NCBI GenBank assembly: GCA_951406725.2
Contig: OX597816.1
Coordinates: 149,048,001 to 149,112,000, forward strand
Direction: 5' to 3'
Source of the DNA: Octopus vulgaris
Lineage: Eukaryota
Length of the DNA stretch: 64,000 bases
Shown here piece after piece: positions 21,022 to 61,035 of the stretch (position 1 is the stretch's first letter; every line of letters starts with the position of its first letter). The position numbers and the translations under genes were made by a program. Under the pieces are notes generated by a model, which did no database searches, had not been told where the DNA came from, and saw nothing but the letters and a program-made list of their open reading frames with translations.

Positions 21022-24000
21022 TTATTGCAGCGCTTCTTTGTAGACGACGTTTCTTGTTTTTGCGGATTGCCGCATATGAAGAGGTTTCGCGGATCTCCAA
21101 TACGTGAGCAACCAACGTAAAGTTGACCATGAGTAAAAACATCTTGGGTCAGGTTTAGTCCAACAACTTAGAGTGATTGGCCCTGAGCTTTATTTATACT
21201 CATGCCAAAACAGACTTTTATTGGAAATTGTTTGCATGTAAACTGGAATGGACTGTCAGACGGACTTAGACTGATTGGAGTTAGCAGTTTTGTCATGCCT
21301 GCAGATGGCCCGCTTAGAATGACTGTTGTGAGAATGCGAGTGCCAATATCTTTGATGATAAGTCTCGTCCCGTTGCACAGTTCTGGTGGGTCGATGTTTC
21401 GAAGCAGCATAACTGGAGTGCCAACTTTGAGTCGGAGGTCATGAGGTGGAAGTCCAGAAATTTGTAACGTGTTGAGGAATTCGGTGGGATAGTTGACAGC
21501 ATCATCAGCGTTGTTTGTAGTGTTGATGGACTTGAATGAGTGTTCGTTCCCAGGAATATGGTTGAGGAGATTTTGATTAATGGCGTCGACATTTGCATTG
21601 TGTGGGGCTAAAATGGCTCTACCTTGCAGCCAGTTGGAATCATGAAATTGAGCTTCAAGATCAGGAAAAACTACCAAAATTAAATCATCAATACTTTCAA
21701 CAAAATTTCCGAAGAGAAGACTAATATGGTCTGCATCGATTGCAGTTGCAGTTCCGTTTCCAACATCGAGTAATTGTCTGCAGAATACTTCAGTATCTGC
21801 GTCCCATTGCAAATGTACTCTCATGTTGGTGGTGAGGTGAAGTTTTTCAACATGACGCCAAAGGTAAGACGATGTGATGCATGCTTTCACTTCATCTGCT
21901 CGTGTGCCCCCAGTGATGACAGGAAGGGTTTGCCGGAAATCTCCAGCCAAAATAACTGTTGCTCCACCCATAAGTCTTGGATTTCGACGCAAGTCCTTGA
22001 GAGCTCAATCCAAAGCCTCAAAAGCCGACTTATTGCTCATTGTTGCCTCATCCCAAATAATTAGACAGCAATCGGAAAGGAGTTTACCTCTTGGCGTGCC
22101 TCAATCTATTTCGCAAGATGGATTCTCTTTCTTTGCAATAACCAAGGGAAATTTGAAGGCTGAATGTGCTGTGCGACCGCTATGCAACAAAGTTGCAGCA
22201 ATTCTGCTTGATGCAACTGCCAAAGCAATTCTCCTGTCTTTTCGCAGATTTGCGAGGAGAAGGTTGATGGCAAAAGTTTTACCTGTGCCATCAGGTGCAT
22301 CCAAAAAGAAAAGCATGCCTTCATTTGAAACGGCACTGGTGAAAATTCAGTTGTATGCAAGTTGCTGTTCAGGCAAAAGTTTTGGTTCATCTCGAGTCAC
22401 CATTTCAGTCAACTCTTCAATGTTATAGTCCAATTCAGAAATGTATTCTGAATCTAAAACGCCATCTCTGTAGACAGGGCTTGGAATACCGAAATGACAA
22501 ACACCATCAAATCCAGCAGCTCTGAGACGTCTGTCGATATCAAGTAGAGCCTCATAGTAGATCTCATTGTTGTATTCGCGTGCATGCAGTCTTCGCAAAA
22601 TATCTTCTGACATGCTGTCTTTGTGTGCCTCCCACAGTTGGAGGGGTTCGCTGACATCGCAAAATCGTAACATACTGCAAAACAATCGCCGCCTTTGTTT
22701 TGGCAGTTTACAATCAGCAGCCTCAACGCCAGGTGCAGATGATTGTCGTCTTCAAGAAGTCCGTGCCTCACACACACCTCCCTGTAAGTGGGACAAATTG
22801 TGCTGTCAAACATTCTGAGGTCAGCAAATGACTTGGGTCCTCTAACTTGATGCAGTAGGGTTCTCAAGAAGAAGCACTCTTGTGCACGTGGATGAACAGT
22901 GAAAAGACGTCCGATTGCATCACTTCTCTTTACACCGGGCCAATTATCGACATCTCCATTTTTCCTTCGACTATGTGATTTCTTTGACCATGTATAGTAA
23001 ACTGGTACATCGTCATAGAGAAGTGTTGCAGCAAATGCATCTCAGGAGCAAAGTTTGAAGAATGCCATAAATTTTGTCTCCAGCAGCTGTTGAGCGACAA
23101 TTTGGGCATTCCGCTCCGTGAAATAGGTGCGCTGCCCATTCTCCAAATGAACATCAATGAACTCGTAAATGTCAAAACCGAAAATCCTCCAAGCCGCCAC
23201 ATTGGAAGAAATGTATCACCCCATGACATATTGCTGGATTTCGTCATTTTGATTCATGCCACCGCTGATGCCAATCACCACCCTTGTTGATGTATTTGGA
23301 TATGTATTTGATGCTTCTGACAGAGGTGCAGCTCTCAACGTTGATGTGTGCTTTGAAGATTTTTGCGAGCAGGGGGCTGTAGGGCACAACCCAGCAGTTG
23401 TCAACGAAGTAAGTGACACCGTCTCTCTTTACCTGAACTGCAATGCCACCGAAATCAGGAGCGCGCCACCGATAAATGGGATAGCTGTGGGTTCTGGTGC
23501 AAGCTGTGCTCACGAAGTCTTTGGGATAATGCTTGCTGCATTTGTTATTCTCCATGCATGCTTTTCTGGGGTTGAGAGGAACACAAGGTCTGTGCAAAAG
23601 ATTGGTCAAAACAATGTTATGAAGCTCTGGATCAACGGTGGGATCTGGAAGCTCAGCACTGATAACTATCAATGTCTGCAGGTCTAATTTTTTCTTTGCA
23701 CCAAATAAGAATATGTGCATACGGAAGGCCCCGCTTCCGCCATTCCACAATGTACATCCAGGCATTAAGAGGACTGTAGATTTTCTCCTTCTTCAGCAAG
23801 GACATCAGGAGATTAAGCTTGAGTTTGAAGACTAATTTCATCTCAGGTCTTGAGTTCAAAAACTCTGCAGCAGTTTTTAGCTCACGGACGTAAGGGTGGC
23901 TGTAGTGAAGCATTGTTTGAAGCTCTGCAATGATATTGCGACTTAAAGGAGGGTTTTTGCTGCATCTATGAGAAAGTTCTTGCTCATGTCCACCCATGAA

Positions 24001-24780
24001 GAAAACCTGCATAAATCGTGGCTCCTCTCCTGATTGTGGGAGAAGGCTCCCAATTTTGTGGTAACATTGGCCATGAATTTGGAAAGTAAAAAGCTTTTCT
24101 TTGGGCCTTGTAACAGTGGTTTGAGAAGTGCTGGCAACCTCAGTGTTGTCAGTGTTTGTCCTTGTTATTCAGCTGTCACTCACACCAAAAGACATCATCG
24201 AAAAACATGAGTTGTATCTCTATAAACTCTTTCGAAACAGCTTTCCGTGGTCAGAGTCACTGGTGAGGTCCTGGATTATTTTGGGAGGAGCAGCCAGTGC
24301 CTCAAGATGAACTTTGCCCCCGGAACAGCAGAGACCTGGAGTCTCCCCTCTCCACTTTTTCGCCCCGCAGTATTTGCAGACTTGATCCATCTGTCCTATA
24401 GAAACGTCGGCTCGCGTAGTCATAAGTAGGATCATAGTTGAAACCTACCATCAACCAAAAATTTTGTTCTGGACGATGTCGTTGTTGTCTTCAACGTTGC
24501 TGGTCCTGCAAACGAATCTTCCTGGCCTCCTAATTCTCAGTCATACGGGTGAATCGATCCCTTTCGCGCTGGGCAGAAAGACGTGATTCTCTGGCAGCAG
24601 AAGTCTCGCTTCTTCGTGATTGCCTGGTGGATTAGGAGAAAGGGCAACGCTCACATGCCTCATTACTCTCTTCGATGCATGAAAGGGTCGAACTATCATT
24701 TTGTTCAGCAACAGGAAATTCCACTGATTGCGGCGTTTCCTCAGAAGGAAGACCCTGTAGAGACGGATAGCATCATTCAA
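21022..24780 (-). pseudogene. Helitron 2 RepHel (zinc finger, Rep HUH endonuclease, PIF1-like SF1 helicase); many frameshifts and stops
   Basis: CKYCGAKKWRGETPGLCCSGGKV; EWRKRGLPYAHILIW (degenerate HUH motif); SIKYISKYINKG; FFLDAPDGTGKT (Walker A); LAGDFRQTLPV; FPIKVCFGMSINKAQGQSL; FTHGQLYVGCSR. Confidence 0.93.
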
Positions 24781-31797: not shown

Positions 31798-32766
31798 TCA
31801 CATAAGATCATCTGCTTCATATAAACCTACATGTTTAAGATTTGTATGTTGTGTACATAATGGTACGTTGTCCCTTCCTGCTGTAAAAAGTCTTATAGGA
31901 TAGACACCTTCATTACTACCAGATGTCATAATGTTCTCAATTGACTGGATAGTTGCTATACTTTGGTGTAGCATTTTAGATGCATCATTTTGTATGGAAA
32001 TAGACTGGGAAGACCTTTTCTCTTCAATGCATGACACAGGAGGTAAGTCAGAAACTATAGAGCCTTCAAATACATTAGACTTTAATTTACATGTTGGTCC
32101 ATATATCACATGTGATACTGTATTGCTTGAAACTGGAGTGGATATGTAAGCCTCATTGTTCAGTTGACCATATTTCTCATTATCAAGCCCTACAGGTTCA
32201 GTTTTCACTCTGAGAACAAAATCAGAATCATTTGAGCAGTCACCATATGTATTAGCATCCAATGAGTCAATTTCAGATTCCTGTTCAATGACACCAGCAG
32301 TACCATTTTTAACTTGTGCTAATGCAGCCTCACATATCTCTTGTTTAACATCAATGACTTGTGTAATGAAAGATGGAGTAGATTGAGATGTAACTGATGT
32401 GATGGATGATGAAGGCAGAGATGGTTGAACTGTTGGCACTGTGATATTGGTTGGAACTGGCAGACCGGCTTGTGTCTGGTTCTGCCTAAGATCAGTCGAC
32501 GGTTGGTTTATTTTGTTTATAAGATTGTTATCACACATTTCTTCAAATTTTTTCATTTCTAATTGTTTTGCAATGATTTTTAATTGCTGTAAAATATCTG
32601 GATCAAGATCTAAATATCCATTGTACATGTATTCTGCAAATGCATTTAAAGCTTGTGTACTAACTTCTTCTGGAAAGTTTATTTGGAGAAACTTCTGAGA
32701 GGAAATATTTGTACTAAATACTGACAATAGTTTTGGACACACAGCAGATAGAATAACTTTATGTAC
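31798..32766 (-). CDS. BTB/POZ-domain protein paralog 2, last coding exon
   Basis: tttcag|GTA CAT acceptor; VHKVILSAVCPKL...FAEYMYNGYLDL...AKQLEMKKFEEMC; 969 nt open to TGA; tail homologous to paralogs 1 and 3. Confidence 0.9.
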   Translation of the reverse strand, partial: VHKVILSAVCPKLLSVFSTNISSQKFLQINFPEEVSTQALNAFAEYMYNGYLDLDPDILQQLKIIAKQLEMKKFEEMCDNNLINKINQPSTDLRQNQTQAGLPVPTNITVPTVQPSLPSSSITSVTSQSTPSFITQVIDVKQEICEAALAQVKNGTAGVIEQESEIDSLDANTYGDCSNDSDFVLRVKTEPVGLDNEKYGQLNNEAYISTPVSSNTVSHVIYGPTCKLKSNVFEGSIVSDLPPVSCIEEKRSSQSISIQNDASKMLHQSIATIQSIENIMTSGSNEGVYPIRLFTAGRDNVPLCTQHTNLKHVGLYEADDLM

Positions 32767-33793
32767 CTGAAATACAGAAAATAATGAGAAATTTTTTTAG
32801 CCATCTAATAATTGAATTGCAAAACATTTTTAAATATTACAACTCAATTAAAACAAAAAAATATTTATTCCAAGAAACTTCATGGAAATATCAATTGAAA
32901 GGTAAAAAATATATTTATTCATTCATAAATTGTCACTAAAGTTTCTGATACTTTATGTATAAAAATGCTATATTTTGCAGTGAGAAACTTGATTCAAACT
33001 TCATTTATTCCACTAGGATATTTAATTAATCTCTCTCTATATATATAATAAGCCAAATCATATGGCTTTTTTGTGGGGTTCATCTCTTTCTGTCACACAA
33101 CAAAGAGGTAGAAGAAAGTAGTAAAATTTTGCTGGGAGATATGGAAGAAAAGAAATTAAGCATTATAAAGAGAGGTGGATGAGATAGAAAAATAGATACA
33201 TGTCAGACAAATAGAGAAATAGCTACCAGTTAGTTAGCTAGTCTGACAATCAGGTGTAGCCAACAGTGAAATATAGGGAGAGATGAAAGAGTGAGAGAGG
33301 AAGAGATAGTGTGAGTAAAAGAAAAGATGTGCAATAAAGAAAGAAACAGCTCTACAATATAGGCAGGTAAAAAGCTATCATGATGAAATAAGTAGATAAA
33401 GCAGTGACTGTGCTGAGAGAAGTGGAAAAGAGAGTTTTATAAAAAGAGGTGGATTGGATATACAAATAGAAAATGAAGCAGGACTTGAGGAAAAAGATCA
33501 TGAATTAGTGAAAGACCAGAAAAGAACATCAATGTTGGTATAAAATAAACTTTACTTTTACTTTGCAAAATATTAACTAATAAACAAGATGTTTGTCATT
33601 AAGAAAATCCAAACATTGCTAAAAATAAAGATCAGTAAAAATTAATAATTTTAACCATCATCTCTGGCATGAAAACAAAGCTTCTTGAAAGATGTGTATA
33701 CTTGAGATATTTTGAACAGTTACATTTTGAAAATTATGATGAGTCAAATAGAAAAAGAGATAAGCATTTTAAATGTCAAGACAAAACACTTAC

Positions 33794-41298: not shown

Positions 41299-41797
41299 TA
41301 AATCATGAACTGATTTTTGCTGAAGCAGATCGTCACTAGTTCCCGAGATTATTAGTCTGTTTAAATCAGTGATTCTCAACAATTTTTTTTCTTCTGTATT
41401 CTTTTGATATGACTCGACAGAATCAAAACACTTCAATTCGGCTGTTTCCGTGAAAGCACGTGTCTGTGTCTTGTCAAATGAAGTAGAAGAAAGCTAATGG
41501 GTTGTACGTACGTGCGTACCTATTCTTGTCTATACCTGTTCTATTTTTATGTATTTATGTATTTATCTATCTATCTATCTCTGGACAGACAGACGCAAGC
41601 CAAACGGGCTCCAAGTAAGTTGGTCATTTTGTACGTTCAAAAGTGTTTATTGTCAAATATTTTGTGTTTAAAAGTTGTGTAACAACATCCACTGCAAACC
41701 TTGATTAATATCTACACAAAATTTCGTCCCTTGTGGGCAAAATTTTTAAAATTCTCATAGGCCTCGTGTTGTATTTTAGCCATTTTTATTTTCAAAA

Positions 41798-43863
41798 ATG
41801 GCTACTGGTCACTACGAGGCTAAGGCGCAAGTCAAGCGTGACGCCAAAACAAAAAAGCAGGATTCCCTGTCACCATGCGCTGAACTTGACAGTTTGAACG
41901 CTACTAACACCACCACCATCAGCATCGACAACAGCAACAACTACATAACAAAGGTCGCAAGGCCAAGCACCGTCACCGCCACCAATGATTCCACCATCAA
42001 CACCGACACCAATGATTCCACCATCAACACCGACACCACCACCATGGCAGCTTCTGCTACCTCTGCTAACGATACCACTAACAACAACAACAAAACCAAG
42101 GTCGCAAGGCCAATCCCTGTCACCGCAACCAATGATTCTACCAACACCGACACCCTCCTTGACAACGCTTACGACGTTGAGTTCCCCATACTGCTTTCAC
42201 CACAATTTCATAAAGCAGGGGAAATGGGGAAAAACAACACGAACACAAATGTGAGCATGAACGCTAACATCGCGACCTCCACTCAAAAACTGGTAAACAA
42301 CCCTACTTCACAGTTATCTACTACTACGAACGACTCTGCCACAAACATCACCACCACCACCACCTCCACAAAAAACAATTTCGTGGAAGCCATACGACCG
42401 AAAAGAAGAATCCTAAAATTTACTCACCAACAAATACAAGACACAAAGTCCTTGCTCACCAAAGAAGGTGACACAATGCATTTAAATATTCCATAGAAGA
42501 AACACAAAAGAAGACCATCATTTACAGAATACTCAACACCAAAACAAAAAGACCAGAAAGCCTACCTAAAGGAAAAATTGAAAAGTGCCTCTCTTCCGTG
42601 TGGAAATTCCGAAATTATGTGAATTGGGGAAGTAAATTTGCTACCGTGCAAGTTCGCTTTCATACGGAAGAACTAGCAAAAAAGTTTTCAACCCTTACTC
42701 TGCGCACAGGACAGGTAACAATGGTTACGAAAGTTACGCAGAGTTACGAAAGTTACAATATACAATGTGCCGCCAGTAGTGAATACCTAGTGGCTGGTAT
42801 CGGCCATCTGCTTCGATATAGAAGAAGCAGATATTTTAGAAATAGCTGATATTCCATAGGAAAGCTGGACTGGTAAAATACTCGAAATATTGCTTCAAAT
42901 CTCCCAAGAAGCAATAAACAATTTACCATCCAGTGTTCAACTGGCAAAAGGTCAAAAATTGTATGTAGTGGTGGAGGACAGGAGGCCAAGATGCTATTTA
43001 TGCAACAGTGAGGCACACCTTAGATATGAGTGCCCAACTGCTGTCAGAAATAGGCAACAGCAACCACTCCCCAAACCTGGAAGGAGACCCGTGCTACCCA
43101 CACCACCTTCAACCCAAAAGACAGGAAAAACAGCGGACGATACAAAAACTGTTTCCCCCTCACCAACCACATCACCAAGAAGAGAATTACCTCCGACATC
43201 ACAACCAACAAAAGAAACAACATCACCACCAACATCAGAAGACAGACCAACACCAGCACCAAGAACAACAACCAAAAAAACAAATAACAATGACGAAAAG
43301 ACAAATTCTGCCCCTAATACCCCAACAACACAAACAGCACACAAAACAACAACACCTTCTACAAACACACATATAGATCCAAACGCTTTGCCTTTACCCC
43401 CTTCTGATTCGTCGAACTCGTCGTCCAACGACGAAAGTTCGACGGAATGGCAAATAGCCACAGGGGGTAAAAGGAAAAGACCAAAAAAGCCCACCAAACA
43501 AGTAAGTAAAGCAGGGAGATATTTAACTTCGGACAGCATCCCCTTAGACAATGAAAAAAAATCAATGACCCCGCAAAACCACACACACAACTAACAGCAA
43601 TAGACACGGACAATAAAAAACTAATGGATTACATTGCATCCAACACGAACATCTGCGAAGATGACTTTAAGACAATCATCCACGCACCACTCCACCGAAA
43701 CACATAAGAATTGTACACATAACACAAACACAACACCATACACTGAAAACCATATTTCCAAATGCGGTTGGGGGGTTTCAAAAATACCTCTCAAAAAAAC
43801 TATTCAAACATCTCCGCAAAGACACTACAAAAGATGAAGAAAAAACTGAAACTTTCGAAATGA
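41798..43863 (+). pseudogene. LINE A ORF1 (T/N-rich leader, RRM-like region, CX2CX4HX4C knuckle, P/T-rich tail); disrupted
   Basis: RRPRCYLCNSEAHLRYECP; several in-frame stops and frameshifts. Confidence 0.8.
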
Positions 43864-43937
43864 GTAAGTCACCTTCCCTCTTGCCTCTTGTCTCTTCCAG
43901 TGCAGTGTGTGAAACACAAATTTCTTAAACGTCAATT

Positions 43938-46900
43938 ATGCTTAAATTAGGTTGTGTGAATGCGCGTGGCTTGGCATCAGCTTGGAAACAAGGTTACCTT
44001 CTAAACAACATCAAGTCACTGAACGTGGATATGGTAGCTATCAGTGAAACCAGACTCAGCAAGCCGCGGGTCCTCGCGTGCATGTTTGGCGACCAATTTG
44101 ACATTTATTTTTCTCTCTGTCTGCCGAACATGGGTGGTGGAGGTACCGTGGTGCTTTTTCGAAAGAATCTAAATGTAAAAGTAAGAACAATATTCCTAGG
44201 CTGGTTGTCTTGGACGTGGATGGCAGAAATGGGTGTGCATTCTGTCTGATGGCAGTTTATGCACCGTCCTTAACGGGTCGGGCGGATTTCTTCAGACGTC
44301 TAGAGGTTTTCCTGGGTACGTCTAGACCTTTACTGTTAGTGGGGGATTGGAACGCTACCTTGGACACGCATATAGATTATGTGGGAATGGATAGGAATAG
44401 AAGGGGGTGTAAGTGCCTCAAAGACCTACTCAGACGTTTCCATTTGTCTGACAGGTTCCGACTCCACCATCCGAACGTGGACTTGGACAAACCGTGTCGG
44501 ATCGTCGAGATCTTATCTAGATAGAATTCTATGCAGGACAGCGGATAGGGATAGTGTAGGATGTCCACAATTTAAAATAGTCAGCTACACAGATCACAAA
44601 TTTGTGACGTGTACGCTCGACTTAGATAAGACACATAGACAGGGTCCCGGTTACTGGAAATTGAACACGTCGCTCTTAGCGCGACAGGTTTACAAGAACC
44701 GGATTAGCGAGCTAATTAAGAGGGCGCTGGCGGGAGCCGTCGTTAACAACCGCTGGTGGTTCGCCCTGAAAATGGCAATAAAATCGGAATCAATTAGGTT
44801 TAGCAAGGAATTAGCGATAGATCGAAATAGAGTAGAGGGAGACCTGGTTAAGAAACTAGAAGAGGCACTTACCACTGGCAGCACAACCAACGTGCTGGCT
44901 GCGAGGATGGCCCTCGACCAATACCTCAACGCCAAGCACGAAGGTTGTGTCGTCAGAGCTAAAATGCGTGCCTTAAGGAACGAAGCTGTGCGAGAGGCCC
45001 GGGTAGCGGAGGCGCAGCGTGGCAACAGAGCCACCATTCGGTCTCTAATAGATCAACAGGGATGCAGTTTACTCGAACCCGAAAGGATGTGTGAGGCCTT
45101 TCAACAGCACTTTGCTCGACTGTTTTGTGCGAGTGGTGGGTCGGAACGCGGGATGGATTTCAGTGCCTACCTGACCGACCTGCCGCGGCTCTCGGCAAAA
45201 GAAGCGGAGTGTTGTGAAAGTCCCATCACAGCCGCTGACGTGCGGGCTGCGCGAGTGATAAGTCGCCTGGATTGGATGGTTTACCCTACGAGCTGTATTG
45301 TCAAATGCCAGACTTGTTTGGCGACCTCTTGGCATCAGTCTACTGCAACTGGCAACAAAACGAGAGAATCCCTGGTTTCGTGAGCCGAGGTGCAGTGACG
45401 TTGCTGAAGAAAGATCCAAACAAGGGGAATTTTATAGATAATTTCAGGCCCATCACTCTGCTCAACGCAGATTTGAAAAAGTAATAGCCGAGAGGTTGGC
45501 GCTTGTCATTGGTAAACTGGTCGACAGGGCGCAAACATGCACCGTGCCGGGCAGAACCATACATGACAATCTCCATCTGATGCGCTACATTGTGGACAGG
45601 GTAGTTAAGGATTCTGACATGGGTGGGGCGCTGATCAATTTGGATCAGTCTAAAGCCTTCGATAGGGTCGACCATCGGTACTTGGCGGCTGGCTTCGGTC
45701 CCGTCTTCCGCGGTTGGATCGCTGCCTTGTATAGCGGCATCCGATCGGTGATTCGGGCGAACGGCCACCTGTCGAAACCGTTTGACATCACGCGTTCGGT
45801 CCGTCAGGGGTGTCCCCTGTCGGCGCTTCTGTATGTATTGACTCTCGAGCCGCTACTGCGGAAGCTGGCGACACTGAGGGGCATCCCATGGGAACTGGGT
45901 TGCGGGACGAGCGTGTCGGCATATGCGGACGATGTCACCGTCATACTGTCGAGCGAAAAACACATCCAGATGATAGGCGAGACACTAAGAAAATACGAAA
46001 CGGTGACGGGAGCGAGGATTAACCCGGAAAAGTCAGTGGGTTTGCTACTCGGCACCTAGAGAAGCAAGCCCATGCCGTCCGACTGCGGCTCAGTAGTGGG
46101 ACGCTGGACGGACGGACCGGTTAAATTGCTCGGGGTCTGGTTCAGTCCGAACCTCCAAATGGATAAGAACTGGAACGAGATCACGAATAGAGTGGTCGCT
46201 CTCAGCCAAACATGGGCCGAGAGAAAGCTGTCTCTAAAAGGTCAGGCGGAGGTGTCGAACGCGTACATCGCATCCGTCATCGATTACCGCCTGACCGTCG
46301 TGCCTTGTCCCGGCGCCACCATCACCAAACTGGAACGCATATTCTTCCGCTTCCTGTGGAAGGGTGGCGTTCCAATGGTGAGGAGGTCCATTTGCTGTCA
46401 ATATCCGTTGAATGGAGGACTGGGCATGCCGTGGTTGATGATGCGCTGAGACTGCGACATCTCTGGAACTTCATCGATGACGGTGAACAGGTGTGGGCGC
46501 CGTTTGTGAGGCGCGCCTTCCCGTAGCACGTCTCACTGACCGAAGTGCAAACGTGGATCAAGAAGAGACCGAAACTGGGCGATTGGCACCAAGAGTGTCG
46601 CCAAGCTCTACAGCAGCTCTGCCGACCGGGGTCAAACTTGTGCAACTTACAAACGACTAAAGCGTTCTATAGAGGACTAGTGGAGGGGAGGTCCGACGAC
46701 ACACTCGGGGCAAATCTGGTCGTCGACGAGAAATTCCTAACCCGCCTGTTCAGGACGACGTTCGGGCCGGGGCTTATGGATAACTTCCAGAAATCCCTGG
46801 CTTGGCAATGCTATCGAGACGCACTACCTGTTCGAGAGAAGAGCTACAGGCACGGTTCGAAAACCATCACCGGACCATCCTGCCCGAGATGCAGTCAGAG

Positions 46901-47298
46901 CGATGAAACCGTTCTGCACGCACTCGTGCAGTGTCCAGATATTTCAGAGCTGTGGACCTTTGTCGAGCAGCTGTTGTCGCGTGTAGGACGGGCCCGCTTA
47001 TCGGCCGAGTCTATCGTGAATATTGTTCCACCACCTTCCTTTAAACGGGAAGGGAAAACGGTTTTCGTTACCCTGATGGCTATGGCGAAATAATGTGTGT
47101 GGTGGACGCGTTTGAAAGGACTGCAAACAAACACCTTCCTCTGGTTAGTCTCTCGTCAACTTTTTCAAGTACCATTTGAAAAGGAGGATGAGAATAGAGA
47201 GGAAGGCTTTGTCGAACGAATGTTTTAATAAAAAGTGGGTAAAAGTGGCAAAAATGGTCAGTATGAAAGACGACACTATTTTAAGCGTAAATCTGTAA
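43938..47298 (+). pseudogene. LINE A ORF2 (AP endonuclease, reverse transcriptase, C-terminal zinc finger); disrupted
   Basis: CVNARGL, ISET, VGDWNA, SYLDRI, YTDHK, GPGYWKLN, FRPITLLNAD, LDQSKAFDRV, VRQGCPLS, AYADDVT, CPRC...ETVLHALVQC. Confidence 0.92.
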
Positions 47299-47412
47299 CC
47301 AAAACAGACAACGAGAGGTAAGGTGACTTACTCGTGTTCATTTTCGAACTGTCTGAGGTGACCTTGGTCTTTTTTGTAGGTTTTTCTTTCCAGGGCTACA
47401 CCTAAACTGTGA

Positions 47413-47416
<4 letters not shown>

Positions 47417-47493
<77 letters not shown>
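47417..47493. repeat. (TA)n microsatellite in the LINE A 3' UTR
   Basis: Pure TA run. Confidence 0.95.
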
Positions 47494-47499
<6 letters not shown>

Positions 47500-47759
47500 T
47501 TTATACACCACACAACCCACAGATCCCTATTAATCGAACGTTTTTTTTTTTCTTTGTGTCCCACCCATCCCACTTCGAAAAGAAAAAACTCTACATTGTA
47601 TTTCGTCCATTTTTATTCTGTGTTTAGCCCTGTGTGGCCACAATAAAAAGTCATGTATTTATGTGTTGTGGAATATAACGAAATTATGCCAGCAATGTCT
47701 CATTTTAAACTGCTTTCGGTTGCTTTATTCTCAATGCTCGTATATTTCAATTGATGCCT

Positions 47760-50700
47760 ATTTGTTATTGTAAGTTCGTTTCTGTGTGTGTTTTTTTATT
47801 ATTATTTGAACTGTTATCTTGCGACAAACAGTAATTTTCGCCCTACGGGGCAGAAAATTTCTGCATTTGTAAAATTTATTTCTTGTCATTTGTGACAAGT
47901 TCCCTTTTTGTACTACCATGGAGTGCGACCTCGCATCGAGAAAAGATTTTCCGGCAATAACAAAGGAAATGAAAAGGACAAAAAAAGTTTTTCGGCAGCC
48001 GTAGGAGGCAATGTCATTGAACTGGAAGTAGCAATGGACAAGCTCTTTCAGTTCAGAAAATTAATTGTAAAAAATGGTGATGAAACCAAGTTGGAACCGC
48101 CCCCGGAAACTGTACAGGCAATACGGGAAAAGACAGTGGTGTAAAAAGTTTTTAACGTCAAGGAAAAAAGAATCTCCGAGGTGAAAAATCAAATGGTGGA
48201 GCAATGTATGACTCCAATATGGAACAAAGTGCGCTACGTTAACCGAGGTGTACGAAGTACTACAGTAGAAGCACATTTCGAGTCTGCTAACATAGCAAAA
48301 GAGATTTCAACGCAGAGGAAATCATGTTGCTGCTGACATACTTAGGCCGGCGAACAGCGAAAATATTTGTGGAAGACATACCAGCAGGGTATGATGTAAT
48401 GTGGGCAGCAACGGCAGTGATATACGACGTGGAGTGCAAGATTACAATCCTGAACATGAGGATGAAGGAAGCCACAAACTGGAGGGGACAGAGTTTAGAG
48501 ATGGTTGTCCAAGGGGACAACCAGACACTCGAAAGTTTGCCCGATAGGGTCTCCGTAGGCGAAGGAATACAATTCGTGTATCGGTGGAGGGATGTAGGCC
48601 CAGATGCTTTAAGTGCGGGGAGAAGGGTCATGTACGCTCTACCTTCACGAAAAAAAAATAGTCGAGGTCCCTCCCCAAAACGAAGTGAGACAGGAGAGCG
48701 TTGCTCAAAAAAAAAAAGCAAAAAGAACAAAGTGAAAAACAAAATGAAGAACAGTAGAAAGAAGGAAAACGACCAAACGGTGATGAAATTTACAACTGTG
48801 ACATATAAACGCAAAAAAGAAAGCACCCCGGACTCCCCTCCCCAAATAAAAAGAAAAACAGCAAACACGCAAGAACAACACCAAAAAATTCCCCAATCCC
48901 TCCCAGCTAACACTACATTTGGAGGTCAGCTTTTTAATAAACCCACCCCACTGTGCTAAAAAGTTTTAAAAAGACTAACAAAATAATTTCGTTCAATGAT
49001 AAGAACGAAAAAGTACTTCGTTTAATCAGGGCTAATCGCCGCATAAAATTTTTTTAATGACTGGCGGGGAGCCCGACACACGTTACGCAAAAGTCGGAGA
49101 GGAGGAGTTGAAGGGAAAGCTCCTCCAGGAACACGTAAACAACAAAACTATAAAAGATGTTACTCAGGAAGTAATAGCTGGGAAGCTAATTATCAGCCCG
49201 GCAGCCACTCCAAACCAGAGCCCGGTGAAAAGCCCAGCAGCTACGGGGAGTGCTGGGGAAGCTGGCAGACAAAAACTGCCATACTCCTTCTCACAACAGT
49301 GAGTAAATTATTTTCTTTTCTTCAATGATTAAGTTAAGTTGTTTAAATGTGCGTGGAATTGGGTCGAGATGGAAACAAGCTTGTTTTCTGAACGACCTCA
49401 TGACATAGAATAGATGTTGTTATTGTAACCGAGTCCAAGATGAGTGGACCTCAAGCGTTCTCGCTTCTTCTGAGTAGTTACGAGAAATTTATTTCTCCGA
49501 GCCGAGGAGGGGGTGCAGGCGTAGTGGTTCTTGTCAGGAAGAACTTGGACTTACAGATAAGTACTGTCTTTCTGGACCCAGAAAGCAGGCTGGTTGTACT
49601 AGATGTGACTCATGTGAGTAAACAGTCCTTCAGGTTGGTAGCTGTCTACACTCCTGAGAAGTGTAGGCAGTCTGGTTTTTACGAGAACCTGGAGCACTTT
49701 CTAGTGACGTCTAAAACGTTAGTTTTGGTAGGGGACGTCAACACTATCCTCGATGCACGGGTCGATAGTGTGGGCTCAACTGATAGGAAAGGGAATCCTT
49801 GCCTCAAGGGTCTACTAGAGAGCTATAATCTAGTAGACCGTTACCGACTGGATGAGCTGAATGTTCCACAGTGGACGTGGAGTAACAACGACGGCTCACA
49901 CAGATCGTACCTAGATAGGGTATTTATTAAGGAAAGAGATAAGAATAGTGTTAGTTGTCCACAATTCTGTATTGTGCCTTACACGGATCACAAACTTGTG
50001 AAGGTGGAGCAAGGTGGAGGCCATAGTACAGAAGTTGTCTTGAAGGGCAGGACGGAGGTGGTGCAGGTGTTTATAGCATCTGTAATCACCTACCGCCTGT
50101 CCGTGGTACCTTGCCCCGATTTGTGGCTAAACAAGTTGGAACGACTCCTCTTCCGCTTTTTGTGGAAGGGAGGACATCCACTTGTGAAGCGCTCCATTTA
50201 CTGCCAGGAACCATTAAAGGGTGGACTGGGGATACCCTGGCTGAAGATGCGCAGATATGCATTGAGGCTGAGACATCTCTAGTGCCACCTGGAGGGTGAT
50301 AGGGTGTGGAGTCCGCTGGCGGAGGAGTTCTTGCCGCAACCGGCCTCTTTGGAGAGATTTAAACCCAGTCTCATTAAAAGATGTAACCTGACTTCATGGC
50401 AGAAGGAGTACCGTCAGGCACTCTGGCTGATCCACAAAACGAGCAAGGCTGGCAGCAGGAATACCACATCAGTGTTCTATAGAGGGCTGGTAGAGGCAAA
50501 AAACAATGACGTCCTAGGAGGGACTCTGGGGTTTAATGAGAACCAACTTGCCAACCTGTTCAAAAAAACTTTCAGGCCGAGGTACTTGGATAACCTCCAA
50601 AAATCCCTGACCTGGCAGTGCTATAGGAACGCTTTACCTGTTCAAGATAAGTTAGCCAGGCACGGAGTACCAGTGTCACCAACGTGTCCAAGATGTGGGT

Positions 50701-51310
50701 TGGACAATGAAACTGTCCAGCACGTTTTTGTACAATGTCGGGAGCTATCCAGCTTGATAAGTTACGTCGAACACGTGCTGTTGCATCTAGGACGAGTACA
50801 GCTGTCAGCTGAATCTATAATAAAGATGATACCGCCAACTGGACTCACAAAGAAAGGTAAGGCATGTTTTTACTGTACGGTTGCAGTACTGAAAGAGTGT
50901 GTTTGGAGGACGAGAATGGAAGGTTCTGTGAAAGGGTCCTTCATCTCTGCTGTCTTACTTCAGATACCATCTGAAGAGCAAGATGGGGTTGGAGAGGAAA
51001 TCCCTGCCACCGAGAGAATATGAGAAACGATGGAAGGATGTGATGAGAAAGTTGGGTGTTAGTAACCCAGCTTAATCATTGCTGAAAGGAAAAGATAGTT
51101 GCTGGGCCTTATAGGCTGCCGGGTTTCGATCTTTTAAACTTTTATTCGTTTTCTTTCTTTGTTTTATTTTATTTTAAAAAAGTTCTAGTTTAAAGGGAAT
51201 TAATCATTGTATAAAATATTTTTAAGTAAATTTTTAAAACGATATTCATACGAACTCATATAACATTTTTTGTTTTTGTTTGTCTTGTAATGTCCCTTTC
51301 TATGTAAGAT
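47760..51310 (+). mobile_element. Tx1/L1-like non-LTR retrotransposon B, internally deleted (lacks RT)
   Basis: Degraded ORF1 from about 47918; ORF2 starts ATG at 49325 (MIKLSCLNVRG); APE ends YTDHKLVKV and is joined directly to the post-RT LKGRTEVVQVFIASVITYRL; CPRC...ETVQHVFVQC; stop at 51073-51075. Confidence 0.85.
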
Positions 51311-51583
51311 CATTTTTTATCATAACAGTTTCGTTTTAAACTTCAAGAAAGAAAGCCTTCAAGTTTATAATGAGACATTGCTGGCATAATTTCGTTATAT
51401 CTATATACCACAACATAAATACATTCGGTACTATTTAAGAAGAGCAGTCCCGGTGAGCGCACTTGCGCTAGTTAGTCGTGACCAGTTGACCCTACAACGA
51501 CTACCTATCCTATAACAAATGTTCGTACAAATTCGGTTGAAAGTTATTAGAAGAACGTAAAATAACGTTTTAAGGGTATGATG

Positions 51584-52224
51584 GGATCTTTTTTCTTTTG
51601 AACGGCAGTTTTCAACACAATTTCTAGTCAACTAAACACTTTTAAACTTCGTATACTGGTAGAATGTGTCAAAATAAAACATTTTTTTCTCTTGGCTTTC
51701 TTGAGAAAATTGTAATTTGTAAGTTTAACGTAGTTTAATTTTTCGAATTTTAACCAATCCTATGCCCTGTATTGAGCTAAAATCATTTGCTGCATCTAAA
51801 ACTGAGAAAACATCCTGTCACCAACCCTAACCCTAAATTTTAGCCTTTCGTTTTTTTTTTTCATAATTGTTAAATTAATTTAAGGATAACAATTAAGGAA
51901 AAAAAAAAACGAAAGCAAAAGCTCAAAACAAAAACAAAACGAATAATTTTAGACACACACGTAACAATTAAATTAATTTAACAATTAAGAAAAAAAAAAC
52001 CCAAAAGGCTAAAATTTAGGGTTAGTGACAGGATGTTGTCTCAGTTTTAGATGCAGCAAATTCGAAAAATTAAACTACGTTAAACTTACAAATTACAATT
52101 TTTTCAAGAAAGCCAAGAGAAAAAAAATGTTTTATTTTGACACATTCTACCAGTATACGAAGTTTAAAAGTGTTTAGTTAACTAGAAATTGTGTTGAAAA
52201 CTGCCGTTCAAAAGGAAAAGATCC
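51584..52224. mobile_element. Foldback MITE (GGATC family) with 8-bp TSD GTATGATG
   Basis: TSD at 51576-51583 and 52225-52232; arms nearly perfectly complementary over most of their length. Confidence 0.92.
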
Positions 52225-55622: not shown

Positions 55623-56579
55623 TCAAGTAAGGTCATTTGCTTTATATAAACTTATACTTTTGACATTGGTAACTTGTGTTGATGATAATGGTAAACTGTC
55701 CCCTCCTGCTGTAAAAAGTCCTACAGGATAGACACCTTCATTGCTACCAGAAGTCACATTGCTGTCAATTGACTGAGTTGTTATAGTTTGATTTAGTGGT
55801 TTTGAAGGGTCTTCTCTTATGGGACTGGACTGAGAACACATCTGTTCTAAAATACATGATGCAAGGGATAAGTTAGAAACTAGAGAACTTTCAAATACAT
55901 TAGATTTTAATTTAGCTGTTATTCCATGTATTATATCTGTTGCTGCTTCATTTGAAACTGTAGATGTATCAAAATGTTTATTCAGGTGACCGTATTCGTT
56001 ATCTTCAGGCCCTACAGGTTCGATTTTCAAACTAGGGGCCATGCAAAAATTTTCAGAAAAGTTATTTTTTGTACTACTACTCAGTGATCCAATCTCAGAT
56101 TCTTGTCTGAAGACATTAACTTTATCCTTCTTAGCCAGTGGTAATTCAGTCTCAAAAGGCTCTTGTTTAATATCAAATGCTTGTGTAGTGATGGATGGAG
56201 TAGACTGAGATGTAACTGAAATGATAGATGATGATGATGGTAGAGGTGGTTGAACTGATAGTTCGGTCTGTGTGTTGTAATGGTCACCTAAGACAGTAGA
56301 TGTTGAAATATGTGGTTGAGATTCTTCATATGGAAGACAACTATCACACAGTTGTTCAAATTCTTTCATGTCCAAACGTTTTGCAATGATTTTCAACTGA
56401 TGTAAAATATCTGGATCAAGATCTAATAATCCATTGTACATGTATTCAGCAAAGGCATTTAAAGCTTGTGTACTTACTTCCTCTGGAAAGTTAATTTCAA
56501 GAAAATTGCGAGAGGGGATATTTGTACTAAATACTGACAACAGTTTTGGACACACAGCAGACAGGACAACTTTATGTAC
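55623..56579 (-). CDS. BTB/POZ-domain protein paralog 3, last coding exon
   Basis: tttcag|GTA CAT acceptor; VHKVVLSAVCPKL...FAEYMYNGLLDL...AKRLDMKEFEQLC; 957 nt open to TGA. Confidence 0.9.
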   Translation of the reverse strand, partial: VHKVVLSAVCPKLLSVFSTNIPSRNFLEINFPEEVSTQALNAFAEYMYNGLLDLDPDILHQLKIIAKRLDMKEFEQLCDSCLPYEESQPHISTSTVLGDHYNTQTELSVQPPLPSSSSIISVTSQSTPSITTQAFDIKQEPFETELPLAKKDKVNVFRQESEIGSLSSSTKNNFSENFCMAPSLKIEPVGPEDNEYGHLNKHFDTSTVSNEAATDIIHGITAKLKSNVFESSLVSNLSLASCILEQMCSQSSPIREDPSKPLNQTITTQSIDSNVTSGSNEGVYPVGLFTAGGDSLPLSSTQVTNVKSISLYKANDLT

Positions 56580-56826
56580 CTGAAACAAAGTAAATGATAA
56601 AACATGCTAATAACTTAACTTAAATCAAGGAGTAAGTCTTTATTTCTTGTTTTTCTCCCCCAAAATATTCAATTCCAAACAGGAAAGCAATTGTCTCTAA
56701 TGAAAGATTAGTAAAATTCAAAAGTTATTTTGATCTGTGTATCTTTATTAGCAATTTGAAAAAAATTATATCAATATGATGTACAGGTAACTTTAAAAAT
56801 CTTAAGAAACTGTTTGATAAATATTA

Positions 56827-57133
56827 TGTGGTTTTAGTAGTGTTATGGGCTGTGATGGAGCTATGTGGTGTTGGTGGAAGGGATTGCAGATGAGGTGGAC
56901 GGAAGTAAGGCTTGCAGGGGCCGGCGGAAGAGTCACAGGGGTGTGCGTGGGAAGGAACCACGTGTGGTCAGCAAGCACATGTGGCCAGTTTGAGCAAAGA
57001 TGGCAGAGAGACAAGACATGTTTAATTCATGAGAGTGACCGCTGATTTCACCGAGGTCAACAGGTAAGACCTTTTGTATTTCTTTCTCTCGTTTGCTTCT
57101 TTTTCTGTTGTCCTTTTCCTTCATCACACTACA
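56827..57133 (+). repeat. 5' LTR (307 bp)
   Basis: TGTGG...CACACTACA; matches the 3' LTR with substitutions and a 17-bp length difference. Confidence 0.92.
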
Positions 57134-57169
57134 AGCTATTTCGGTCCATAACAAAAAAAAAAAAAATGA

Positions 57170-57890
57170 ATGATGAGTGTTGTCCGTATTTTGAATGATA
57201 TGATCAAACCATTTTGCAGTGACACAGATGTAGTCGCTTGGTTGAAGAAGATGAAGTTGGTGGCGAAGCTCCACGGTATAAGTGACTTATCGAGTTTTAT
57301 ACCGCTGTACTTGGATGGTTCGGCGTTGGCGCTGTACCTAGAAATGGAAGAGAGGGACCGACTTAGCGTGGAGAAAATAGAAATCCGTTTGATGGAGGCC
57401 TTTGCAGAGGGAATGTTCGAGGCATACGCTCGCCTGGGGAAAACAAAATGGACTGGGGAACAGGTTGACGTATTTGCAAACGAACTCAGGAGATTGGCTA
57501 AACTGGCGGGATATGAGGGAGAATCGCTGGACCGAACGGTTAAGTTGGTGTTTGTGACTGGCTTTCCTGACCACATGTCGGTCGAGTTGCAGAAGCTGCC
57601 GAATATTCACTCGATGGTGATGGCAGACATTGTATCTCGGGCTCGCGTGCTAGTTTCGTGCTGCAGAACAACGTTGGTAGCAGCGACTTCAACAATTAAA
57701 AGTGGCCATGGAAAGAGCAGCAGAGAGGGGTCAAAGAAAGAACATGTGCGATCATTCAAAGGACAGAGTTTCCGGTGTCAGGGCCCGCACATGGTATGAG
57801 ACTGCGAGTCACCCAAGCCTGAGGTCATTTGCTACTGGTGTCGAGAAACGGGACATATAGCCAGCGAATGTTTGCGGGGAAATGGTCTGA
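57170..57890 (+). pseudogene. gag (capsid-like region plus two degenerate zinc knuckles, in-frame stop at 57797-57799)
   Basis: IKPF...DVVAWLKK...IPLYLDGSALALY; SFRCQGPHMV*DC and CYWCRETGHIASEC. Confidence 0.8.
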
Positions 57891-57924
57891 GGGAGACTAC
57901 TGCGCTGGTAGTTGTCCCTTTGGA

Positions 57925-60700
57925 TCAATAGAGGTGCGTTTATCGTCATTACCTGTAGTCGACATTCTGGTGGAGTGGAAGATGTCGCAAGCCCTTGCGA
58001 ACACGGGCTGTACAACGACCCTGATGACTCCAGAAGTGGTAGAGACGTGGAGTGCAGAAAGCAGTGTAAGTGCAGTCAACGGAAGAGAAGTACACTGTGA
58101 AGGCATTACAGATGCGCAGATTGTGGTGCAGGGAATAAGGCTGACGCTACGAGCAATTGTAGTTGGCCACTTGGTGGACGAGATTGACGTGGTGATGGGG
58201 ATGGATGCAATCACCCGTTTGGGAGGTGTCACTGTTAACAAGGCCAGTGTAACGTTCAGGTTTGCGGGGAACCCATGTATGGATGAGACTGTGCACTGAT
58301 GAGAACCATGAAGAAAAGTATGCTGCACACGCCATTGAAGACCAGGATTTTCGGGCTGTCTTCGATGGCCAGAGGTGGACAGTGGAGTGGCACTGGAAGG
58401 GAGAGCCCCCGACATTAAAAAATAAAGTGGGCTGCTATCAGCATACCCTAAAAGGAGATGCCAGAAGTGAGTTTGAGGGGGATGTGGAGCAGTGGATTAA
58501 GGAGGGCATATTGATCCCTTGGGATGAAGAAGAGAGCAGAGTCCTGCCACTGATGGCGGTGGTACAGACCACAAAGCATAAGGTCAGGCCAGTGCTTGAC
58601 TTCCGAGAGCTGAACAACCACGTATCATGTCATACAGGCGGCGAGGCCACAGATGTCTGCGGAGACACCTTGCGAGTGTGGAGACAGATGACAGGGGCCT
58701 CCACGATCGTCGATTTGAAGTCGGCATACTTGCAGGTACATGTGGCTGAGAAACTGTGGAAGTATCAGCTTGTCAGGTATAAGGGCCGGACATACTGTCT
58801 GATCAGGTTGGGGTTCGAGCTGAATTCAGCGCCAAAAATCATGGCAACAATTCTCAAGGCCATCCTGGGAAAGGTGGACAGAGTTAAAAAGGCCACCAAT
58901 TCGTACGTTAATGACATTCTGGTGGATGAAACTGTAATGCCAGCAGCGGAGGTCATAGGCCACTTGAAGAATATGGGACTGATCGCCAAGCTACCAGAGG
59001 CAATAGAGGAAGGTGCTGCACTGAGCCTCAAGCTATGGAGAGATAAGGCCGGCACATTGGTGTTCCAGCAAGGGAACGAGATCCTCGAACTGAGTGCCAG
59101 CATGAGTAGACAGGAACTGTTCTTGGTGTGTGGGAAGCTGGTTGGACACTACCCGATTGCAGGATGGCTCCGGACAACATGTAGCTTCATCAAGAGACGA
59201 GCCGAAGGAGTGAAGTGGAACGATAGAGTGGGGGAGAAGACGACCGACATGATACAGGAAGTCTTGGTCAGAGTGAGAGCAGAGGATCCAGTGAGGGGCA
59301 GTTGGTATGTTCCCAAATCAAAGAGTGGGATTGTATGGTGTGATGCCAGTAGCATCGCAATAGGGGTTGTCTTGGAAGTGGGAGGCGTCATGGTGGAAGA
59401 TGCAGCCTGGCTCAGGAAGACGGATGACTGCAATTATACCAATGTGGCGGAGTTGGATGCTGTGTTGAAGGGAGTGAACCTAGCCTTGAAGTGGGGGCTG
59501 CACACCATAGAAATCAGGACTGATTTGGCCACTGTACTTGGTTGGGTGACAGCAGTCATCACCATTGAGCGGAGGGTGCGAACCAAAGGGGCCACAGAGA
59601 TGCTGGTAAAGCGTCAATTGGGAATATTGCGTAAACTAACCACTGAGTTCAATCTGTAGCTGATCTTTGTGCCTTCCGAGAACAAGGCAGACGTCCTGAC
59701 CAGGGTAAAGCGAGTCTGGTTGCAGGTGCCAGAGGATGCAGAGCAGGCTGTGGCCGCAGTATGCCATCTGAGTGACTTGGAGTTGAGGAGATTGCATACC
59801 ATGCATCACATGGGGGTGGACAGGATGTTGTTCCTAGCTAGGAAAGTTGACTCTGATGTAACAAGATGGAGCGTGGTTAGCAGCTGTGACAGGTGGCAGT
59901 CCATCGACTCTGCTCCGGGCGAACATGAGGCGGGAAGTATTCCAGTGGATCACGACTGGCGGTGGACATAACACACTACTGGCAGGGGACATACCTCTCA
60001 ATGGTTGACTGCGGACCGGGGCGGTTGGCCATATGGAGGAGATGAAGACAGGGACCGCAGAGGAAATTGTGAAAGTATTAAATGAGATATTCCTGGAACG
60101 AGGCCCCGTGGATGAACTGCTTCTGCATTTCGCTTGGAGGTGCTGAAAGAAATGCTTGATGGGTGGCAGGTGAACCCCTTCATCAGGATGGCATACCGGC
60201 TGAGTGGAAATGGGGTGGTGGAAAGGCATCATCGTACCATCAAGACCATGGCAGAGAGGGGCCACATTTCACCAATCGAGGCTGTATTTTGGTACAATAT
60301 GTCGCTCAAGTCAGGACAGGCTGAGGAGTTGGTGCCACACGGAAATATTCAGGTACGAGTGGAGGCATCCATGTACTGCATCAATGTGACCCGGAACAGA
60401 GGAAGAGCATGCCTTTGTGCAGGTCGGAGAAGAAGTTTGGGTAAAACCCCCAAACGTATGGTGTACATCACGATGGGGAAAGGGAATAACCTCCATCAAT
60501 TCGAAGAACAACGTCTCTGTCAATGGTGTGCCACGCTACATTTTGGATGTACTGAAGATTGTCCATGCCTCAGTAGGCAAGAAGATGAAGCAAGCAGCAG
60601 CATGCCAGGAACTCAGGCTAGTCCCGGGGTCGCACGGTGACCACAGAGGGAGCGGCACCCTCCTCCCTGGTTGGCTGATTATGAAACCAGTTAAGGTGTG
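57925..60700 (+). pseudogene. pol (protease, RT, RNase H, integrase), inactivated
   Basis: ALANTGC (degenerate DTG), RPVLDFRELN, IVDLKSAYLQ, SYVNDIL (YxDD changed to YVND), VWCDASS, AELDAV, SGNGVVERHHRTIK; stops and frameshifts. Confidence 0.88.
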
Positions 60701-60745
60701 AGTTTGGGAGCGAGGAGTGAGTGGGAAAGCCAGTTGTAGGGGGCA

Positions 60746-61035
60746 TGTGGTGTTAGTAGTGTTATGGGCTGTGATGGAGCTATGTGGTGTTGGTGGAGGG
60801 GATTGCAAATGAGGTGGACAGAGGTAAGGCTTGCAGGGGCCGGCAGAAGAGTCACAGGGGCATGCATGGGCAGGAAGCATGTGTGGCCAGTTTGAGCAAA
60901 GACAGCAGAGAGACAAGACGTGTTTAATTCGTGAGAGTGACTGCTGATTTCGCCAAGGTCAACAGGTAAGGCCTTTTGTATTTTTTTCTCCTGTTTGCTT
61001 CTTTTTCTGTTGCCCTTATCCTCCATCACACTACA
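60746..61035 (+). repeat. 3' LTR (290 bp)
   Basis: TGTGG...CACACTACA followed by TSD TATTA. Confidence 0.92.

Follow-up and report, generated by a model that had tools for sequence, protein, structure and literature searches.

Elements of the long interspersed nuclear element (LINE) type must obtain a second open reading frame (ORF2) from one mRNA, keep its product rare and survive nonsense-mediated decay (NMD) with 3-4 kb behind the ORF1 stop, a puzzle for which nearly all work has dealt with human L1 and SART1. A general argument that the level of ORF2p has to stay low has been put forward (PMC3894237). Human LINE-1 is described as translating ORF2 by termination-reinitiation in an AUG-independent manner (PMC4091050, PMC5972666), while re-initiation at ORF2 of SART1 is reported to require structured RNA downstream of its ORF1 stop (Kojima 2005, as given in PMC5972666). 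Pairing over 3.5 kb is described as needed for expression of the polymerase in Tombusviridae, by readthrough, and in luteoviruses, with frameshifting in barley yellow dwarf virus (PMC3542737). Eberle 2008 is reported to have stabilised an mRNA by a foldback in which 20-30 nt just past the stop pair with a segment close to the poly(A) signal (PMC2689704). Here we analysed a stretch of 64,000 nucleotides of Octopus vulgaris DNA (contig OX597816.1, positions 149,048,001 to 149,112,000; hereafter the window) from a genome of 2.8 Gb, in which a Tx1-like retrotransposon, LINE A, carries complementary sequences at both ends of ORF2. A 2026 repeat annotation of this species, whose main text mentions neither ORF2 nor splicing, gives 13 active L1-Tx1 families (PMC13282606), and no ORF2-bracketing stem in a LINE was found described in the literature searched, an incomplete collection with few subscription papers.

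The locus shares features with each of these systems. As described for the plant positive-strand RNA viruses, sequence at the stop of the first gene is predicted to pair with a partner some 3.5 kb off, close to the 3' end, with the polymerase gene bracketed, and for the viruses a link between translation of the polymerase and replication has been proposed (PMC3542737). However, the viral element is described as a short contact acting with a local stimulator to give a readthrough or frameshift fusion protein, whereas the LINE displays a predicted rod of 50-80 bp over a separate ORF2 start and is DNA-encoded. ORF2 of the octopus elements begins at a start of its own beyond an in-frame stop, and the ORF1 stop and the spacer vary in frame and length, which is not the arrangement of viral-type recoding; the rod resembles known long-distance RNA switches and yet stands apart from viral recoding elements. 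SART1 is likewise a non-LTR (long terminal repeat) element with structure-dependent coupling of ORF2, but is described with an overlapping UAAUG stop-start and no mention of a partner at the ORF2 end, whereas in the octopus elements 7-70 nt separate the two ORFs and the partner lies 3.3 kb away. Human LINE-1 has a homologous ORF2 (E 7.6e-95, the closest solved relative being human L1 ORF2p), a bicistronic layout and AUG-independent initiation of ORF2; it differs, by the descriptions cited, in its dispensable spacer and poly(A)-tailed insertions, and these mention no ORF2-bracketing stem. Foldback suppression of NMD, as described, was engineered in human cells with pairing directly before the poly(A) signal, as opposed to about 250-330 nt before it in the LINE. 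The Ty1/copia element EVADE is described as having, where its structural-protein gene ends, a conserved 5' splice site (PMC5580714), but also a defined short intron and demonstrated isoforms, without any long-range rod, while in the LINE no acceptor or spliced product was found. Finally, the Tx1 elements Kibi and Koshi are also two-ORF elements with an APE domain and a reverse transcriptase (RT) domain inserted in a microsatellite, in another repeat and host, and their description mentions no such structure (PMC4494074).

The two ends of LINE A ORF2 are predicted to form a long-range rod

The preliminary description of the window, made from the letters alone, had reported that 43854-43893 of LINE A, around the ORF1 stop, is the reverse complement of 47306-47348, just past the ORF2 stop (47296-47298). 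Both coordinates and letters were borne out (TTCGAA at 43854-43859, TTGTCT ending at 43893, AGACAA starting at 47306), and the pairing is in fact longer and includes more helices: the two segments are part of a predicted multi-helix rod enclosing ORF2 in a loop of about 3.3-3.4 kb. The segments do pair, although they are not a plain reverse complement, with a 4-nt bulge, one mismatch and a 7-nt insert between them. The perfect 14-bp core that had been singled out (43862-43875 with 47320-47333) is exact in LINE A and represents the longest exact inverted match inside LINE A or its neighbour LINE B; within 41500-51600 the sole longer one, of 32 bp, lies in flanking DNA. A 14-mer inverted match somewhere in 5.6 kb is expected by chance about 0.06 times (an estimate) and is by itself unremarkable, so that the pairing is noteworthy because of its position and recurrence, not because of the length of this core. 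Moreover, the core is perfect because TCA at 43869-43871 replaces the ORF1 stop TGA, a change private to LINE A and one other copy; 37/41 copies of its family (family A) have TGA and thus a G.G mismatch inside the core.

In order to score the pairing we used a fixed test comparing 160 nt around the ORF2 start with 160 nt around the ORF2 stop. LINE A scored 48, against 20.4 +/- 2.9 in 1000 dinucleotide shuffles (z 9.4), and this pair of segments outscored all 2195 other pairs of such segments in the element. LINE B shows the same topology, as had been proposed, with a score of 40 (z 5.6; Table 1). Folding of 43600-47420 as one molecule by minimum free energy (MFE) gave the nested helices listed in Table 1, and unconstrained folding of 4-kb RNAs recovered the long-range rod in 3/3 elements. 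The most conserved helix is one that the preliminary description did not contain, in which the ORF2 AUG and first codons pair with the last ORF2 codons. At least two bases of the AUG are predicted to be paired with the 3' arm (p>=0.8) in 11/13 representatives having an AUG. Across lineages the 5' arm is fixed, always running from the ORF1 stop through the first ORF2 codons; the 3' arm is partly or wholly coding and is located at the first site free of strong protein constraint, the position of the ORF2 stop varying relative to it.

Within family A, compensatory change was seen at pair 43878/47317, which among 41 copies is C-G in 13, U-A in 17, C.A in 6 and U.G in 1 (4 unscored), the older copies having C-G and the young ones U-A. 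Among the representatives L021-L045, a second long-range helix within ORF2 occupies a constant site in 7/11 (counted from the ORF2 start, about +1300-1400 with +1760-1860), and several local hairpins also recur. The 3' arm is quasi-palindromic, and copy L018 (aligned to 47320-47333) has the 4-nt loop inverted, as expected of hairpin template switching. A contig from sequencing run X5 carries the 3' arm variant of LINE A itself (47306-47335), which places LINE A or a near twin in that run.

The pairing recurs with unrelated stems and covarying arms

Sixty further elements were taken from the genome by Pfam and LINE B searches, and 36 elements, both window copies included, were anchored in the first round. 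The elements form nine lineages in the genome, with 54-80% ORF2 identity to LINE A. The first representatives all displayed significant pairing (16/16, p<=0.015), and with unchanged parameters so did 19/20 further loci (p<=0.010), 17 of these 20 belonging to lineages already seen and 3 to one new lineage. Two loci were mis-anchored, L099 in a microsatellite and L057, which has a premature stop. Thus, the survey that had been suggested found the pairing kept in other family members, and the arms are sequence of the element and not of an unrelated inserted repeat.

The arms also pair with their own partner and not with that of another lineage. Own-arm scores were 31-52, compared to 22.7 +/- 3.9 for swapped arms (n=174, maximum 35); the score matrices are block-diagonal, and the own-arm score exceeds every swapped score in 12/14 cases, with p<=0.010 in 14/14. 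For the inner helix without gaps, own arms form 9-15 Watson-Crick pairs of 18 (at least 11 in 10/11 lineages), while at least 11 were reached by just 9/102 swapped arms. The covariation that had been claimed from LINE A and LINE B could not be drawn from two elements; it emerges from 10 lineages, in which three inner-helix positions show all four Watson-Crick pair types. Counted from the last conserved Trp, most lineages have a helix register of 36-40 and lineage G has one of 26, and this shift of 10 nt indicates that the helix was rebuilt there with another partner segment. Because the stems are unrelated in sequence and the register of lineage G is displaced, complementarity has been rebuilt repeatedly inside protein-coding sequence. 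Lineage counts share ancestry and are not independent events, and covariation was judged by shuffles and swapped arms rather than by a tree-aware method.

These results bear on the simplest explanation, namely that the rod has no function and reflects chance, composition (a pyrimidine-rich spacer facing a purine-rich post-stop region) or a one-off duplication-inversion. The GC-rich ORF2 RNA does contain other long helices of equal or higher score, the perfect core of LINE A is a private change, and 6/37 scored copies tolerate C.A, a mismatch, where the compensatory pair lies. However, neither composition-preserving dinucleotide shuffles nor swapped arms match the observed pairing, and stems unrelated in sequence, a register off by 10 nt in lineage G and complementarity rebuilt again and again speak against this explanation. 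Covariation thus exceeds a composition effect by the shuffle and swapped-arm controls and by the compensatory pairs; absence of function is largely refuted and we regard it as highly improbable, while the rod structure is almost certainly real and selected. The preliminary description had taken the pairing between spacer and 3' untranslated region (3'UTR) as a selected structural feature of a Tx1-like clade. Selection is supported, but the conserved core is the AUG helix, and the name Tx1 applies by architecture and insertion target.

An outside element carries the same predicted rod

Homologues 38-44% identical occur in other assemblies. One of them, here called the outside element (P0003, 41% identical), forms tandem arrays that make up contigs assigned to a bacterial metagenome-assembled genome; these contigs (L187-L224) are likely mis-binned DNA of a eukaryotic host. 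Intact elements repeated head to tail, with a spacing of 5.2-5.9 kb, were also observed at L027, L024, L041 and L044 (G000 C47, C50, C4, C30). The rod is present in 14/38 loci of the outside element examined, 13 of them distinct. The partner of its AUG helix is formed by C-terminal codons, with a register of 36, the duplex reaches z -4.2 to -6.5 in 13/13 distinct copies, and G-C/A-U swaps separate the subfamilies. Here the 3' arm is coding and ORF2 extends about 50 nt further. The pre-set test segments gave no significant pairing for this element (0/13, p 0.07-0.75), missing the rod because the ORF2 stop lies about 50 nt further on; shifted segments, chosen post hoc, gave p<=0.032 in 11/13, and the Trp-anchored segments as applied to all lineages gave p 0.003. 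In L206, an outside element, the usual stop is lost and an extra G-C pair is gained in the rod, as with the loss of the ORF1 stop in LINE A. A search of viral contigs gave no match.

A splice donor motif tracks the ORF1 stop

A 5' splice-site (donor) consensus, GTRAGT, lies 25-86 nt upstream of the ORF2 Gly codon in 19/21 representatives and occurs 0-4 times per element elsewhere. It is located -5 to +5 nt from the ORF1 stop in 13/13 representatives with an intact stop, in three different frames and in part outside coding sequence, and it tracks the ORF1 stop of the outside element, too, in 70/70 matches (from overlapping arrays). Copies L187-L216 of the outside element have a second donor-like motif, GGTAAGT or GGTGAGT, about 15-20 nt past the ORF2 stop.

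This motif raises the possibility that ORF2 is a facultative intron, the rod bringing the donor at the ORF1 stop near an acceptor past ORF2; the product would be an mRNA for ORF1 alone, comparable to the one that copia-type elements make for Gag. Such splicing would account for the tracking of the ORF1 stop by GTRAGT across frames and in the outside element, and a junction at the ORF1 stop would escape NMD of the exon junction complex (EJC) type, for which the 50-nt rule is established. A U-rich tract followed by AG is also found just past the 3' arm in lineages A, C and D. Nevertheless, this acceptor-like tract itself pairs with the A-rich ORF1 end in lineages A and D, no 3'UTR acceptor rose above shuffles in 14/14 representatives (p 0.054-1.0 by a simple ad hoc score), and none was found in lineages E and F. 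Spliced retrocopies, defined by an ORF1-end motif at most 30 nt from a 3'UTR motif, had 0 matches in the genome. Donor-exon patterns matched 5 times for family A (control 3) and once for lineage H (control 2) without any junction; five of these matches are unrelated DNA and the other, L084, is an unspliced copy. We also inspected contigs of sequencing runs that are presumed to be RNA and in which rare forms are lost. They cover the element and two cross the donor unspliced; no GT-AG joint skipping ORF2 was present among 12 joints (228 loose ends and a donor-adjacent repeat left out), and ORF1 sequence was seen in 0/4 loose contig ends over the 3'UTR. In the same contigs A>G changes, compared without DNA of the same animal, were not above G>A. 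ORF1-only elements have related ORF1 proteins (about 22-50%), with no DNA match to the lineages here and no sign of a donor junction. Altogether, we consider splicing across ORF2 unlikely.

Another reading of the motif is a nuclear switch for completeness, in which U1 bound at the donor would protect the nascent RNA from premature 3' end formation and the transcribed 3' arm would then fold back and displace or reposition U1, leading to 3' end formation and export of unspliced RNA. Conservation of the donor without a conserved acceptor fits this scheme, as does the ACTTAC of the family A 3' arm, which pairs fully with the donor, and U1 is described as playing a splicing-independent role in EVADE (PMC5580714). 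Against it, no more than 7/12 scoreable representatives (a count that excludes G and G2) have the donor paired with the 3' arm, and it is free in D, E, I, B1 and B2; ORF2 holds few AATAAA signals to suppress, 0-2 per element; and the helix inside coding sequence is left unexplained. We judge this switch improbable, more so than splicing. Donor masking was also considered as the purpose of the rod and was rejected on the same count of 7/12.

The rod as a proposed translational gate at the ORF1/ORF2 junction

In one young lineage (L043, L087-L090, L093, L095, L101) the ORF2 start has no AUG in 8/8 copies. Its ORF2 frame opens after an in-frame stop and the first Met is at residue 101 or 172; the frames are nevertheless intact (1138 aa) and the helix is present, which fits non-canonical re-initiation as described for human L1 (PMC4091050). 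The ORF1 stop is located 10-36 nt upstream of the helix over the ORF2 start in most lineages and about 70 nt upstream in family A. A fixed 5' arm, a 3' arm at the first site free of strong protein constraint and a wandering ORF2 stop point to a job of the rod at the ORF1/ORF2 junction. Stop-to-start ribosome recycling was rejected as a conserved feature because the ORF2 stop moves relative to the arm.

We propose that the rod may act as a translational gate at this junction and shield the RNA from NMD, a reading to which we give about an even chance; complementarity, position, covariation and the folding prediction are the data from which we infer each of its steps. On the full-length bicistronic RNA, the rod would form only once the 3' arm is present. 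A ribosome finishing ORF1 would melt the outer helices, while the helix over the ORF2 start and the first 6-7 codons, at or just past the ribosome footprint, would survive; this would explain why the helix always reaches into coding sequence. The ORF2 start would thus be hidden from free scanning, and ORF2 would be metered to occasional termination-reinitiation, even without an AUG, with rare re-initiation favoured on intact RNA only. Concomitantly, the physical distance between the ORF1 stop and the RNA 3' end, about 3.8 kb, would shrink to about 0.3 kb, a geometry by which engineered foldback mRNAs suppress NMD. Finally, passage of a ribosome through ORF2 would unfold the rod, so that synthesis of the enzyme would alternate with a closed, template-ready state.

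The rod could instead serve the architecture of the ribonucleoprotein (RNP) or reverse transcription, by compacting the RNA or by offering ORF2p the 3'UTR as a substrate for target-primed reverse transcription with cis preference, or as a pause or template-jump point. The 3' arm adjoins a 3'UTR with a CATTCGA-like motif and a terminal hairpin before AATAAA, and an internal deletion in copy L004 has its 3' breakpoint at 47306, the very start of the 3'UTR arm. However, the other internal deletions (L005, L018, L019, L020 and LINE B) end elsewhere, no copy with ORF2 excised at the base of the stem was found (0 matches for one pattern and one helix), and fixation of the 5' arm on the ORF2 start is left unexplained, which makes this role, to our minds, about as improbable as the nuclear switch. 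In the 3'UTRs of L021-L057, which lack poly(A) tails, a CATTCGA-like motif recurs and a small hairpin immediately precedes the terminal AATAAA; the motif and the hairpin are candidates for recognition by ORF2p.

Several observations weigh against the translational gate. It leaves the conserved donor motif unexplained, and it assumes that the RNA is polyadenylated, while copies in the genome are tailless. Instead of facing the AUG, the ORF2 stop lies 42-114 nt past the conserved Trp codon, and the predicted AUG pairing is weak in 2/13 representatives. Translation of human L1 ORF2 is described as independent of the spacer and of the ORF1 3' end (PMC4091050). Among distant relatives (24-34% identity), 80 loci were collected and 65 were dropped (no closed ORF of at least 950 aa, endonuclease start unmatched, short flank or duplicates); one helix reached p<=0.01 in only 3 of the 15 scoreable loci, with swapped-arm controls that were not clean, and the AUG helix and the donor were found in none of the 15. 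The rod is therefore limited to the clade as far as tested.

More tentatively, the gate and the donor may be combined. In a whole Tx1-like branch, which would span more than one animal host, the virus-like RNA clasp of 3.4 kb might be a master switch that conceals where ORF2 starts, protects the ORF1 stop against decay and acts together with the U1 site, so that only intact full-length RNA would make the enzyme, even without an AUG; this would be the first long-range RNA switch for LINE ORF2 expression. If the gate is true, the rod would represent natural foldback suppression of NMD in a bicistronic transposon RNA, and a strategy of plant RNA viruses would extend to retrotransposons. The young multi-copy family offers a covarying cis element, natural compensatory variants and a natural AUG-less lineage, and the puzzle of ORF2 expression is therefore directly testable with few synonymous changes.

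The LINE A family and other features of the window

The window contains two adjacent non-LTR elements on the forward strand, LINE A at about 41581-47650 and LINE B at about 47900-51330, whose features are given in Table 1. LINE A is 93-94% identical to young intact copies of its family and retains RT and zf-RVT matches despite its frameshifts. With its spacer as query, the genome returned 1094 candidates, and ORF2 is intact in about 50 of the best 150 protein matches. Twenty intact family A copies are 96.5-99.8% identical to one of their number; all have the 3' terminus AATAAAAAG without a tail (20/20), and (TATC)n flanks them on the 3' side in 20/20 and on the 5' side in 12/12 scored. Their ORF2, of 1146 aa counted from the AUG, matches PF03372, PF00078 and PF13966 by profile search (APE, RT and a C-terminal Cys/His motif), and zf-CCHC was found in 3/4 ORF1s scanned (E 0.002 to 3e-5). 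By these matches, the family is a non-LTR element of the L1/Tx1 group, Tx1-like by architecture and insertion target and not by tree. The homology search for ORF2 gave 57 homologues, with no named Tx1 reference among them.

Table 1. Positions of the predicted rod, ORFs and donor motifs of LINE A and LINE B in the window
Feature	Position	Strand	Basis or remark
LINE A, decayed near-full-length Tx1-like copy	41581..47650	+	5' limit approximate, after TATC run
LINE A ORF1, broken; zinc-knuckle protein in intact copies	41798..43871	+	
LINE A 5' arm, outer helix at ORF1 end; predicted partner 47363-47384	43819..43839	+	MFE
LINE A 5' arm, helices 43860-43875/47320-47335 and 43877-43893/47306-47318	43860..43893	+	
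LINE A 5' splice-site consensus GTAAGT beside ORF1 stop	43864..43869	+	consensus match
LINE A 5' arm, inner helix over ORF2 AUG (43938) and first codons; most conserved	43936..43955	+	
LINE A ORF2 (APE endonuclease, reverse transcriptase, zf-RVT), frameshifted; looped-out segment	43938..47298	+	
LINE A 3' arm, inner helix in last ORF2 codons	47270..47290	+	predicted to pair with 43936-43955
LINE A 3' arm, 3'UTR helices	47306..47384	+	
AATAAA and LINE A end; genomic copies without poly(A) tail	47642..47650	+	end as in 20/20 intact copies
LINE B donor consensus GTGAGT over ORF1 stop	49299..49304	+	
LINE B 5' arm over ORF2 AUG (49325)	49313..49342	+	
LINE B 3' arm over ORF2 stop (51073-51075)	51062..51092	+	

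LINE B retains the endonuclease and the C-terminus. Its RT domain was removed by an internal deletion (50003-50045) joining the endonuclease to the C-terminal region, and both arms remain. The DNA just past LINE A and that just past LINE B form an inverted match (47653-47711 with 51362-51424, 87%, 32 bp exact), possibly an older repeat in or beside which both elements landed. A local hairpin lies inside LINE A ORF1 (43386-43480, -47.2 kcal/mol, z -7.7), over a Ser/Asp-rich stretch and a basic motif, and is retained in older and young family A copies (z -2.9 to -7.0). Elsewhere in the window we noted an LTR retrotransposon (56826-61035) with LTRs 86% identical and broken genes, a Helitron remnant on the reverse strand (21168-24168; Helitron_like_N, PIF1) and, also on the reverse strand, three BTB/POZ paralogue exons (16458-18005, 31798-32796 and 55623-56606), which are 73-85% identical and form a local gene cluster.

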